A stretch of DNA of 64,000 nucleotides, from sequence record MZ501089, one strand, 5' to 3'. This DNA is from Escherichia phage KarlGJung. The first letter of the stretch is position 1, and each line of letters opens with the position of its first letter. The position numbers and the translations under genes are program-made. The notes beneath the pieces were generated by a model that saw only the letters and a program-made list of their open reading frames with translations, searched no databases and had not been told where the DNA came from. This document shows positions 1-7,253 of this stretch, piece after piece.

Positions 1-692
1 ACCGTGACCGTGTACGCATTAACGGTTCTGGATGGATTGCTAGACAACCGGGTGATTGGGGCAACCAATGGCGAGTAGAAGCTCCATTATTCGTTGATCA
101 TGGTTATGTTTCACAGGATTGTTATTATCCTATTCTTAAAGCAAGAAGCGTTATAACCAATCAAGGATATAGCACCGCTGTTGACTTTGGTATGCGTCGT
201 ATTCCATCACAGTGGGGGCAAGCAATCATTCGTGTCGGATCCACGGAGGCTTCTCCTGATGCTGGACACCCACAAGCTGTGTTTGAATTCCATCATGATG
301 GATTCTTTTATACACCAGGAAATGGTAGCTTTAGCGATGTGTATATTCGTTCTGACTCCCGTCTCAAGATTAATAAAGAAGAATTAGAATATGGAGCGGT
401 CGAAAAAGTTTGCCGACTGAAAGTTTATATTTACGATAAAGTTAAGTCTATTAAAGACCGTAGTGTTATTAAACGTGAAGTTGGTATTATTGCTCAGGAC
501 CTTGAAAAGGAATTACCGGAAGCTGTATCTAAAGTTGAAGTTGATGGATCTGATGTTCTGACAATTTCTAACTCTGCTGTGAATGCTCTTTTAATTAAGG
601 CTATTCAGGAAATGAGTGAAGAAATTAAAGAATTGAAAACGCCTCTCTTTACTAAAATTGCTCGCAAAATTAGTAAATATTTTAAATTCTAA
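1..692 (+). CDS. 37: Long tail fibre distal subunit gp37, C-terminal fragment (5' end outside window), ending in an intramolecular-chaperone-like domain
   Basis: Frame 3 open from nt 3 to TAA at 690-692; C-terminal motifs SDSRLKINKEELEYGAVEKV...GIIAQDLEKELPEAV...LLIKAIQEMSEEIKELK; followed by gene 38 and t. Confidence 0.7.
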   Translation, partial: RDRVRINGSGWIARQPGDWGNQWRVEAPLFVDHGYVSQDCYYPILKARSVITNQGYSTAVDFGMRRIPSQWGQAIIRVGSTEASPDAGHPQAVFEFHHDGFFYTPGNGSFSDVYIRSDSRLKINKEELEYGAVEKVCRLKVYIYDKVKSIKDRSVIKREVGIIAQDLEKELPEAVSKVEVDGSDVLTISNSAVNALLIKAIQEMSEEIKELKTPLFTKIARKISKYFKF

Positions 693-1541: not shown

Positions 1542-2198
1542 ATGGCAGCACCTAGAATATCATTTTCGCCCTCTGATATTCTGTTTGGTGTTCTAGATCG
1601 CTTGTTCAAAGATAACGCTACCGGGAAAGTTCTTGCTTCCCGGGTAGCTGTCGTAATTCTTTTATTTATGATGGCGATTGTTTGGTATAGGGGAGATAGT
1701 TTCTTTGAGTACTATAAGCAATCAAAGTATGAAACATACAGTGAAATTATTGAAAAGGAAAGAAATGCACGCTTTGAATCTGTCGCCCTGGAACAACTCC
1801 AGATAGTTCACATATCATCTGAGGCAGACTTTAGTGCGGTGTATTCTTTCCGCCCTAAAAACTTAAACTATTTTGTTGATATTATAGCATACGAAGGAAG
1901 ATTACCTTCAACAATAACTGAAAAATCACTTGGAGGATATCCTGTTGATAAAACTATGGATGAATATACAGTTCATTTAAATGGACGTCATTATTATTCC
2001 AACTCAAAATTTGCTTTTTTACCAACTAAAAAGCCTACTCCCGAAATAAACTACATGTACAGTTGTCCATATTTTAATTTGGATAATATCTATGCTGGAA
2101 CGATAACCATGTACTGGTATAGAAATGATCATATAAGTAATGACCGCCTTGAATCAATATGTGCTCAGGCGGCCAGAATATTAGGAAGGGCTAAATAA
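1542..2198 (+). CDS. t: Holin T
   Basis: 218 aa; SD AAGGAGG; N-terminal cytoplasmic segment, one TM (VAVVILLFMMAIVWY), large periplasmic domain; matches T4 holin length and layout. Confidence 0.85.
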   Translation: MAAPRISFSPSDILFGVLDRLFKDNATGKVLASRVAVVILLFMMAIVWYRGDSFFEYYKQSKYETYSEIIEKERNARFESVALEQLQIVHISSEADFSAVYSFRPKNLNYFVDIIAYEGRLPSTITEKSLGGYPVDKTMDEYTVHLNGRHYYSNSKFAFLPTKKPTPEINYMYSCPYFNLDNIYAGTITMYWYRNDHISNDRLESICAQAARILGRAK

Positions 2199-5031: not shown

Positions 5032-5259
5032 TTACTTAATGTTCAGATTACGAACTTCGATTTCGTCTTCATGGGCAAAATCAAACTGTTTGAATTCTGT
5101 GTCACCTTTAAATTTAAAAATCATTGTGAAGAAAGTCAGAACACCAGGTTTTTCTTCACGAACTCCACAGATATCATATTCAATACCATCTACAACCAGT
5201 TTGTTAGCAGTCAGAGCATTTTTAGCTTTAACGATTTCGTTTTCGATTTTAAATTTCAT
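5032..5259 (-). CDS. Hypothetical protein, 75 aa
   Basis: Track ORF with own early promoter and ATG start. Confidence 0.45.
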   Translation of the reverse strand: MKFKIENEIVKAKNALTANKLVVDGIEYDICGVREEKPGVLTFFTMIFKFKGDTEFKQFDFAHEDEIEVRNLNIK

Positions 5260-5308: not shown

Positions 5309-5338
5309 ATAGTACCACAGTATGCTTTGGTTGTAAAC
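5309..5338 (-). promoter_or_regulatory. Early promoter (GTTTAC-N18-TACTAT)
   Basis: gtaaac 5333-5338, atagta 5309-5314; upstream AT-rich tract. Confidence 0.55.
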
Positions 5339-5368
5339 CGTTTTGTGAAAAAATTTTTGAAATAAAAA

Positions 5369-5390
5369 AGGGAGAGCCGAGGCTCTCCCT
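5369..5390 (-). terminator. Intrinsic terminator hairpin followed by U-run on mRNA strand
   Basis: gggagagc-cgag-gctctccc stem-loop; mRNA continues tttttatt. Confidence 0.6.
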
Positions 5391-5394
5391 AAAA

Positions 5395-5544
5395 TTACTG
5401 CATGACTGTGATAACTGTCATGATAACACGTTGAATTCCGAACGCAAGAAGACCTCCTGCTACGGCAGGAACAACACCTAAACCCGCCAGTAAAATGCCA
5501 CCAGATACTAATGCAGCGCTTGTGATACCAATGAATGGACTCAT
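5395..5544 (-). CDS. 49 aa glycine-zipper membrane peptide (below track cutoff)
   Basis: Hand-translated MSPFIGITSAALVSGGILLAGLGVVPAVAGGLLAFGIQRVIMTVITVMQ; ATG overlaps gp52 TGA (ATGA); terminator follows. Confidence 0.45.
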   Translation of the reverse strand: MSPFIGITSAALVSGGILLAGLGVVPAVAGGLLAFGIQRVIMTVITVMQ

Positions 5545-6869
5545 TTGATTTCCTCTAAATCTTTGGTGTATTCTGTAACTACATCAGTAGTTTTCCAATA
5601 TTCGTTTTCTTCTTTTTTGGCTTTAGCTTCTTCAGCAAGTTTCTTTGCTTCGTCGGAAGTCATATGAAAAATGTTCATTCCAACTAGTTTATCAACATAA
5701 GAAGAATACATATCAATTTTAGAAAGTTCTTCGGTCAGTTCTTTGCGAGTTTTACCTTGTACAACAATTTCACCTGAAATTACTTTCTTAATGAAATGTG
5801 CCTTGGCAAAAGCTAAACGAAATGCTGATTCAGTTTCTTTGATTTTGTTATCAATTCGTTTTTGGACATAAGTTTTACGAACTTCAACGAAGTCTTTGAT
5901 TAAATCAACTACATTATCGTAAACTTGCAGCTTTCCTTTCTCATTAATGACGGTAATATTCTGGGAACGACGCTCAATCAACCCGAAGTCTTTCATAATT
6001 TTTGCATGGCGTTCTTCTTCATTATCGCTCAAAGAGTATTCTTTTCGGAATTTAACTTTGAAGCCAAAGCCATGCTCACCACAAGCATCATCCCATGTAA
6101 TGAAGCCTTTATCTTCAAGCGGGTCTAAGATTTTACTCACATAAGTTTCACGATCATACTTATATGGAATCTCAGTGATATGCATTTGAGTTCGTGAAGT
6201 AAACTTATATGTTCCACGAATTTCATATTGCCCATCAATTTCAACGACTTCACCACGAAATTCTGGGAATTCTACCTTCGGTTTAGTTACTTTCTTTCCT
6301 TGAAGAGCTTGCAGTACAGCTTTCTTGACAGAAGAAACACTATGAGGAAGAATGTAAGTTGCATAACCAGTTGCAATACCGGAAACGCCATTAAGAAGAA
6401 CAGTAGGAATAATAGGCAAATAGAAAGCAGGCGGAATGTGTTCTTTATCTTGATGTACTGGAGCATATTCAGTATCTTTATATACGTTATAGAAATTTTT
6501 ACTTACACGAGCAAAAATATAACGACTTGCTGCTGCCTTTTGGACAGTACGAGAACCAAAGTTTCCTTGACCGTCTAACAGAGGAAAGTTATTATTCCAA
6601 GTGTTAGCCATCAAAGCACCTGCGTCTTGCGCAGAGTTTTCACCATGATGATATCCAAGGTCCGCTACACCGCCTGCGATAGAAGCGAGTTTGTGAAACT
6701 TATCTTTATTTCCTCGTGCCAAATCAAGAGCTCGAGCAATAACAAATCGTTGAACTGGCTTAAATCCGTCAATCATATTTGGAATGGCACGATTTTCAAC
6801 CGTGTACATAGCATAAGCCAATGCTTCATTATCAATGATACTTTTTAAATCACGATTATTCAGTTGCAT
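5541..6869 (-). CDS. 52: DNA topoisomerase II medium subunit gp52 (GyrA-like)
   Basis: 442 aa; MQLNNRDLKSIIDNEALAYAMYTVENRAIPNMIDGFKPVQRFV...; active-site region ASRYIFA. Confidence 0.9.
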   Translation of the reverse strand: MQLNNRDLKSIIDNEALAYAMYTVENRAIPNMIDGFKPVQRFVIARALDLARGNKDKFHKLASIAGGVADLGYHHGENSAQDAGALMANTWNNNFPLLDGQGNFGSRTVQKAAASRYIFARVSKNFYNVYKDTEYAPVHQDKEHIPPAFYLPIIPTVLLNGVSGIATGYATYILPHSVSSVKKAVLQALQGKKVTKPKVEFPEFRGEVVEIDGQYEIRGTYKFTSRTQMHITEIPYKYDRETYVSKILDPLEDKGFITWDDACGEHGFGFKVKFRKEYSLSDNEEERHAKIMKDFGLIERRSQNITVINEKGKLQVYDNVVDLIKDFVEVRKTYVQKRIDNKIKETESAFRLAFAKAHFIKKVISGEIVVQGKTRKELTEELSKIDMYSSYVDKLVGMNIFHMTSDEAKKLAEEAKAKKEENEYWKTTDVVTEYTKDLEEIK

Positions 6870-6873
6870 AAAT

Positions 6874-7014
6874 TTACCATACTAGTGAATGTAGTGCCAT
6901 AATAACATCAGAAATGAAAAGCACGACTTGAATTAATCCGAACATTATTCCGTAATATAATGCTATCAATAAAATAGCAAGGGCTAATGAATAGCCCAAG
7001 ATTTTCTTAATCAT
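6874..7014 (-). CDS. 46 aa membrane peptide (below track cutoff)
   Basis: Hand-translated MIKKILGYSLALAILLIALYYGIMFGLIQVVLFISDVIMALHSLVW. Confidence 0.4.
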   Translation of the reverse strand: MIKKILGYSLALAILLIALYYGIMFGLIQVVLFISDVIMALHSLVW

Positions 7015-7165
7015 TAGTAGATAACAACACAAATGTTAAATATGCACACATACCCTGAGCTAAAGCTTGCGAAAACACACTGCTGGCATCAATACAGATA
7101 GTTAAAACACATGCTACTATCCAACAAATAAATGAAATAACTCCTAATAATTTTGCGATATTCAT
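7007..7165 (-). CDS. 52 aa membrane peptide in the position of T4 ac (below track cutoff)
   Basis: Hand-translated MNIAKLLGVISFICWIVACVLTICIDASSVFSQALAQGMCAYLTFVLLSTND; SD GAGG. Confidence 0.4.
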   Translation of the reverse strand: MNIAKLLGVISFICWIVACVLTICIDASSVFSQALAQGMCAYLTFVLLSTND

Positions 7166-7172
7166 ATTTTCC

Positions 7173-7253
7173 TCACTGGCGTCCGAAGACGCCTTTAGTT
7201 TTAAGATTATTACGATAGAACTGCATCACGTGTTCGTTGTGGAAATTACTCAT
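7173..7253 (-). CDS. stp: Stp peptide (26 aa; activator of host PrrC anticodon nuclease in T4)
   Basis: Hand-translated [26 protein letters not shown], matching recalled T4 Stp; TAATG overlap with ndd stop. Confidence 0.7.
7178..7193 (-). other. UUCG-tetraloop hairpin spanning the 3' end of stp
   Basis: ggcgtc-cgaa-gacgcc on + strand (loop UUCG on mRNA). Confidence 0.45.

Follow-up and report, generated by a model that had tools for sequence, protein, structure and literature searches.

What does the short reading frame at the 3′ end of phage gene 52 encode, and what might its product do? We addressed this question in a window of 64,000 nucleotides from Escherichia phage KarlGJung (sequence record MZ501089), to which all coordinates below refer unless another locus is named. 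The ORF (5395–5544, minus strand) starts with ATG, ends in TAA (5397–5395), and specifies 49 residues, exactly the peptide that an initial annotation of the window had quoted from the ORF listing. The window is that of a Tequatrovirus: over 2.2 kb surrounding the ORF, several T4-like phages have the identical sequence (100%), and 496 records reach at least 95% identity there. The ORF is the already catalogued T4 gene motA.1 (protein NP_049874.1, UniProt P39512, PHROG 3487, Pfam PF26886 Phage_T4_Y16H). The window peptide is 98% identical to the T4 protein (48 of 49 residues, the sole difference being G16S) and matches phrog_3487 over positions 1–49 of 49 (E = 7e-31), a full-length profile match, and all 16 homologue clusters carry a precomputed PF26886 assignment. 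Synteny agrees with this assignment, as the ORF overlaps the gene 52 stop and lies upstream of motA, an arrangement also found at loci L004, L077, and L078. The gene is annotated in T4, T2, T6, RB33, vB_EcoM_112, and hundreds of relatives. The initial annotation had called the ORF unannotated, a label that fails and that arose because the track it was read from had a length cut-off. In public records motA.1 widely carries a wrong label ("transcriptional regulator", "flagellar motor protein MotA", or "flap endonuclease"), apparently spread through the name of the gene and not through any similarity. A literature search met the name motA.1 in the main text of a single, unrelated paper and found no paper discussing the gene.

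The gene is tightly joined to its upstream neighbor. Gene 52, for the topoisomerase protein gp52 (5541–6869, minus strand; 442 aa, from the ORF listing and the annotation of relatives), ends in a TGA (5543–5541) that overlaps the motA.1 start codon (5544–5542) in an ATGA junction (5541–5544, minus strand; read from the sequence). A Shine-Dalgarno sequence, GAGG (5552–5555, minus strand), stands 7 nt upstream of the motA.1 ATG within the last gp52 codons (..L-E-E-I-K), and this context is repeated in nearly all loci surveyed. An identical 4-nt overlap appears in the annotation of 10 further Tequatrovirus records, T4 included, was called likewise in the divergent homologues at L077 and L078, and is kept even in homologues that are ~40%–60% identical (L004, L077, and L078). 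With overlapping stop and start codons and a Shine-Dalgarno sequence inside the upstream gene, gene 52 and motA.1 have the layout of a coupled gene pair, so that the translational coupling to gp52 predicted in the initial annotation is well founded; its statements on the sequence of the ORF are all correct. Membrane micro-protein genes flank gene 52 on both sides, with 52.1 and ac upstream (6874–7165, minus strand; 46–52 codons each, mutually overlapping). Nearby, directly after ndd, lies stp (7173–7253, minus strand; 26 codons), whose product activates host PrrC. It is a further functional gene below any length cut-off, and it is without annotation in RefSeq NC_054920.

The transcription unit closes just past motA.1. 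An intrinsic terminator (5363–5390, minus strand) begins 4 nt beyond the motA.1 stop codon and consists of a 9-bp GC-rich stem with a UCGG loop (5390–5369), followed by a U6 tract (5368–5363). The terminator scan counted six GC pairs in the stem and then T6, and the fold is strong (−20 kcal/mol, z = −5.6; none of 200 shuffles was as stable). A GC-rich hairpin followed by a U tract is the form of a Rho-independent terminator, one is annotated here in NC_054920, LR215724, and NC_024125, and the strong terminator that had been placed at 5369–5390 is confirmed by both scan and folding. A promoter-like site (5309–5337, minus strand; TTTACA, 17 nt, TG-TACTAT), identified by consensus match only, opens the next unit, which comprises a 75-aa ORF and then motA; the site delimits the gp52–motA.1 unit at its end, and its counterpart in Yersinia phage fPS-65 is labelled "predicted early promoter". 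The 75-aa ORF (MKFKIENEIVKAKNAL...; 5032–5259, minus strand), with this promoter-like site of its own, lies between motA.1 and motA. There is no gene there in the T4 reference, and vB_EcoM_G9062 has a hypothetical protein at this position; the ORF is an indel polymorphism among Tequatroviruses.

Several lines of comparison indicate that motA.1 is a genuine protein-coding gene under strong purifying selection. It was found at full length in 458 phage records by tblastn, and the region in 493 by blastn. We examined 10 Tequatrovirus sequences, picked to include the most divergent (RB33, CrRp10, fPS-65, T2, and T4), and the frame is intact in all 10; variable sites are distributed 6/6/19 over codon positions 1, 2, and 3. 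The initial annotation had named conservation in T-even genomes as a check and a frame broken in close relatives as grounds for dropping the gene; conservation holds, and no broken frame was encountered among these 10. Residues 1–41 are near-invariant (the changes are I5V, G16S/A, L22V, and one R39H), and the last eight residues are variable. Beyond the genus, Kanagawavirus has clear 49-residue homologues with ~40% identity (PHROG 3487 at E = 2e-19). In pairs of these homologues, synonymous changes outnumber nonsynonymous ones by 23 to 5, 17 to 1, and 12 to 3, with omega (dN/dS) of 0.01–0.11. Two divergent metagenome homologues (P0017 and P0018) keep both MSPFxGITxAAL...QRV and the 4-nt overlap with gp52. 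The ORF has a GC content of 45%, compared to 34.5% for the window, which is explained by its Gly and Ala codons. A frameshift fusion of gp52 and MotA.1 was considered and rejected: reading back from the ATG, the motA.1 frame stays open over just 13 codons, and it has no slippery heptamer, making a frameshift extension of gp52 unlikely.

Published T4 data bear on when the gene is expressed and whether the phage needs it. In a time-resolved transcriptome and proteome, motA.1 mRNA falls in the early class, and the protein has the entry "NA", that is, not detected in the T4 proteome by mass spectrometry (PMC9697503, Table S2). This absence is only weak negative evidence, because tryptic mass spectrometry is ill suited to a protein that contains one Arg and lacks Lys. 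A literature search for a T4 ribosome-profiling dataset found none. CRISPRi-ART knock-down of motA.1 with six guides gave a score of −0.09 (KS p = 0.33, "Not Fit"), versus 2.17 (p = 3e-4, "Fit") for gene 52 (PMC11879866, source data of Fig. 5). The sole "Semi-Fit" motA.1 guide covers the ribosome-binding site and the end of gene 52 (PMC11879866), and we read its behavior as an effect on gene 52.

The predicted product is almost wholly hydrophobic. MotA.1 (4.8 kDa) has a single charged residue, Arg39, a mean Kyte-Doolittle hydropathy of 1.61, and 17 small residues (Gly, Ala, or Ser) among its 49. An AF2 monomer model, built on a shallow alignment, is one continuous helix over residues 3–48 (pLDDT 86), in line with the small-residue-rich helical peptide described in the initial annotation. 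A 46-residue helix is about twice the thickness of a bilayer, and the center of the sequence is rich in Gly and Pro in all homologues (GLGVVP, GQPVA, GVSMP, GIGVGG); on these two grounds MotA.1 would probably form a two-helix hairpin, with short helices at about residues 4–20 and 27–47, although AF2 itself gives a single helix and not a hairpin. By the positive-inside rule, Arg/Lys39, which is conserved, would face the cytoplasm together with the C-terminus, which varies and in some cases is charged. The peptide had also been described as a glycine zipper, and this did not survive a strict test. The T4-type sequence contains no GxxxG pair, and homologues contain none or one. Small-xxx-small pairs number eight, against 5.3 ± 1.6 in 10,000 composition-preserving shuffles (P = 0.08); for triples the P value is 0.22, and for homologues it lies at 0.17–0.72.

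To place the gene in a wider context, we surveyed the position directly after gene 52 in 67 T4-like loci. A scan of IMG/VR with the 49-aa peptide had given only five loci, and the 67 were instead retrieved through alignment of gp52; ORFs at the gp52 stop were then called by a scan restricted by start position. We treated as enterobacterial the 44 loci whose gp52 C-terminal half is at least 57% identical. In 39 of these 44, an ORF of 22–59 aa with a mean hydropathy of 1.2–2.7 starts between −7 and +9 nt from the gp52 stop, mostly at ATGA or TTGA. The slot is filled by at least eight families without recognizable mutual similarity, three of which are distinct PHROGs. These include MotA.1 itself (Tequatrovirus, Kanagawavirus, and locus L029), a 59-aa family in Klebsiella phages, a 45/46-aa family in Gelderlandvirus and others (PHROG 13762), a 29–34-aa family in Dhakavirus and Gaprivervirus (PHROG 16377), a 26-aa family with a TTG start in Mosigvirus (unannotated in the record examined), and families of 23, 22, and 24/26 aa. 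When MotA.1 was compared by hhalign with three sets of these (the 59-aa family, the 45/46-aa family, and the 29–34-aa and 26-aa families pooled), the probability was ~2%, that is, no detectable homology. Three of the other families are themselves under purifying selection (omega 0.03–0.2). A hydrophobic small ORF starts within such a 28-nt interval at 1.6% of random positions, and among the 49 long-ORF stops in the window that of gp52 alone has one (none of the other 48). The slot ORF is absent from L028, from a clade comprising L043–45 and L048, and from the more distant T4-like loci L050–L058, where a terminator or another gene follows gp52 directly; gp52 is intact in L050–L058. Distant aquatic T4-like phages have soluble genes at the slot position.

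Some individual loci give a glimpse of how the slot may change. L028 and L029, whose gp52 C-terminal halves are 73% and 72% identical to that of the window, are related phages that differ in the slot: in L029 a 46-aa MotA.1-like ORF starts 2 nt past the gp52 TAA, and in L028 the terminator comes directly after gp52. This looks like a recent gain or loss of a micro-ORF. The metagenomic contig L078 encodes a MotA.1 homologue (120–269) followed by a second, ATGA-coupled hydrophobic ORF of 26 aa (266–346, plus strand; MSPLAIGFLGTVAVLVALLYVVDFYM) that resembles the Mosigvirus 26-aa peptide, which is coupled directly to gp52; the chain suggests that loss of the first micro-ORF would leave the second adjoining gp52. 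Slot ORFs have also been overlooked in records. In Mosigvirus TU01 (L003) a 26-aa hydrophobic ORF with a TTG start (1854–1934, plus strand) overlaps the gp52 stop and is unannotated, a 29-codon ORF on the opposite strand being annotated instead, and in Gaprivervirus VR25 (L007) a 32-aa hydrophobic ORF overlapping the gp52 stop (1854–1952, plus strand) is likewise unannotated in the record.

Taken together, these observations make it somewhat probable, in our judgment, that motA.1, a real early gene, encodes an integral inner-membrane micro-protein that is accessory, non-essential, and co-expressed with gp52. The gene lies on the same transcript as gene 52, in a unit that closes at the terminator 4 nt past its stop. 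Ribosomes that finish gp52 may re-initiate at the motA.1 AUGA, so that the peptide would be made together with gp52, at the same time and place. It would then insert into the inner membrane, probably as a two-helix hairpin around the Gly/Pro-rich center, where its small-residue-rich helices would most likely pack against a larger host or phage membrane protein, a role against which the lack of significant enrichment in small-xxx-small spacing counts; it probably would not form pores. It would occupy a slot that different T4-like lineages fill with hydrophobic micro-proteins without recognizable similarity in sequence. The non-essential status is supported by the "Not Fit" knock-down and by the absence of the ORF from L028, L043–45, and L048.

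Other readings of the locus can be weighed against this one. That the ORF is non-functional and is kept for reasons at the RNA level (the spacing between gp52 and the terminator, the stability of the mRNA 3′ end, or a frameshift extension of gp52) might seem to follow from a protein never detected (PMC9697503), a neutral knock-down (PMC11879866), and a terminator that in some lineages comes directly after gp52. This reading is scarcely credible, however, in view of the third-codon-position bias (6/6/19), an omega of 0.01–0.11 with up to 23 synonymous changes, and the persistence of hydrophobic ORFs at this position across dissimilar families; the short upstream open frame speaks against a gp52 fusion, and Rfam offers no family match. 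We regard as very unlikely an exported peptide whose N-terminal half is a cleavable signal sequence and whose product is periplasmic, as implied by the label "predicted periplasmic protein" in the T4 record. That label dates from an old automated prediction. The N-terminus (MSPF...) lacks a positively charged n-region, what would remain after cleavage (VVPAVAGGLLAFGIQRVIMTVITVMQ) is hydrophobic too, and conservation is highest in the first 41 residues, unlike the case of typical signal peptides. The initial annotation had likened the peptide to type I toxins and other pore-forming or depolarizing peptides, which would oligomerize via small-residue faces and dissipate the proton-motive force in host shut-off or lysis timing. 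The small size of MotA.1, its nearly uniform hydrophobicity and richness in Gly, Ala, and Ser, and its early expression fit such a role, and many peptides of this size are toxic if over-expressed. Yet there is no similarity to a toxin family: searches of Pfam (a local copy without PF26886), NCBIfam, and PADLOC returned no families at E up to 10, and a PDB profile search returned chance matches only (E above 1). A profile HMM search of 1.84 billion representatives yielded four proteins, all MotA.1-like phage-type relatives, with no bacterial homologue; the contigs of two of them were checked, and both proteins follow a gp52 gene. Nor did an Rfam scan for antisense or structured RNA find any at gathering score (best E = 0.52), and promoter-like sites occur at the chance level (8 found, 8.9 expected). 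Of the features of a type I toxin, MotA.1 has that of a small hydrophobic membrane peptide (49 aa, hydropathy 1.61, predicted helix 3–48); an antisense RNA antitoxin was not found by these computational scans, and neither was homology to a described toxin. The absence of strict GxxxG, small-xxx-small spacing that does not exceed chance, and the neutral knock-down also argue against the proposal. In addition, T4 needs an energized membrane until holin triggering, and early depolarization would be self-defeating, as it would deprive the infection of its energy supply and trigger the holin prematurely. The resemblance to toxins is unsupported, the idea rests solely on size and hydrophobicity, and we consider it improbable.

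A more specific alternative is that MotA.1 is a dedicated partner of gp52, tethering newly made gp52, or the T4 topoisomerase II/replication-origin complex, to the inner membrane. This would account for the coupling of a transmembrane peptide to gp52 in so many T4-like genera. In the survey, 39 of the 44 enterobacterial loci have a hydrophobic micro-ORF, from one or another of at least eight families, joined to the gp52 stop, and the 48 remaining long-ORF stops in the window all lack one. Fractionation work attributed to Huang in 1975, and to Takacs and Rosenbusch in the same year, reportedly recovered gp39 and gp52, which are DNA-delay proteins, with the membranes; our own literature search on membrane association of gp39 and gp52 found nothing. 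Against a tether, the families have no recognizable similarity, so that no common gp52-binding surface is visible, and just a few residues of MotA.1 would protrude from the bilayer. The ORF is also missing in L028, L043–45, and L048, and in L050–L058, where gp52 is intact, and knock-down of motA.1 is neutral where that of gene 52 is costly (PMC11879866). We would call this alternative unlikely.

An accessory membrane protein, as favored here, can also be seen as one instance of a broader pattern. On that reading, T4-like phages would share a conserved slot at the 3′ end of gene 52, where translationally coupled transmembrane micro-proteins with unrelated sequences are variously retained, lost, or replaced. 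These might share a sequence-tolerant function tied to gp52, such as bringing gp52 mRNA, gp52, or the origin-replication machinery to the membrane, or they might reflect repeated de novo birth, hitch-hiking on a well-expressed gene and then fixed by selection. We put this forward as a speculation that is more probably wrong than right by a wide measure; if it were true, motA.1 would be the entry point to a general principle and not a single orphan gene. The gene itself is not a discovery, given that it is already in the T4 reference record, Pfam, and PHROGs. It offers a clear case, under strong constraint, of the many uncharacterized membrane proteins of fewer than 50 residues in the model phage T4. 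The one fresh point is the gp52-coupled micro-ORF slot, a modest comparative observation that is possibly new. Dissimilar micro-ORFs recurring at the gp52 stop across T4-like genera provide a tractable comparison for studying how membrane micro-proteins are acquired, traded, and put to use by phages, and whether it matters that they are expressed along with the topoisomerase.

Comparison with known systems helps to place MotA.1 among small membrane proteins. T4 MotA.1 has the same position (overlapping the gene 52 stop and upstream of motA), the same terminator, and the same length; at this locus KarlGJung differs from T4 in nothing of substance, save that an extra 75-aa ORF (5032–5259) stands between motA.1 and motA. 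The neighboring early T4 genes ac (7007–7165) and 52.1 (6874–7032) are like motA.1 in having 46–52 codons, predicted membrane helices, and overlapping junctions, and like it they are "Not Fit" on knock-down. Their products belong to other sequence families, however, and are rich in Ile, Leu, and Cys, whereas MotA.1 is rich in Gly and Ala and its gene relatively GC-rich (45%). The type I toxins Hok, TisB, Ibs, Ldr, and ShoB are similar to MotA.1 in size and hydrophobicity, but MotA.1 has no homology to them, no detected antisense RNA antitoxin, and none of their usual polar or charged tail; in contrast to these repressed toxins, motA.1 is expressed constitutively with an important replication gene. 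A parallel for the proposed role is offered by AcrZ, MgrB, CydX, and KdpF, small inner-membrane proteins that modulate larger membrane proteins; packing against a larger partner is the way in which AcrZ, MgrB, and CydX work. MotA.1, with at most 50 residues and a predicted transmembrane helix, has the build of such a modulator. Like it, these proteins have 50 residues or fewer and amount to little more than a single hydrophobic helical unit; they can be dispensed with under standard conditions, and their genes often stand at the end of, or beside, the operon of the larger protein. MotA.1 differs from them in having no sequence relationship to any of them, and in having as its neighbor gp52, a soluble DNA enzyme and not a membrane complex.
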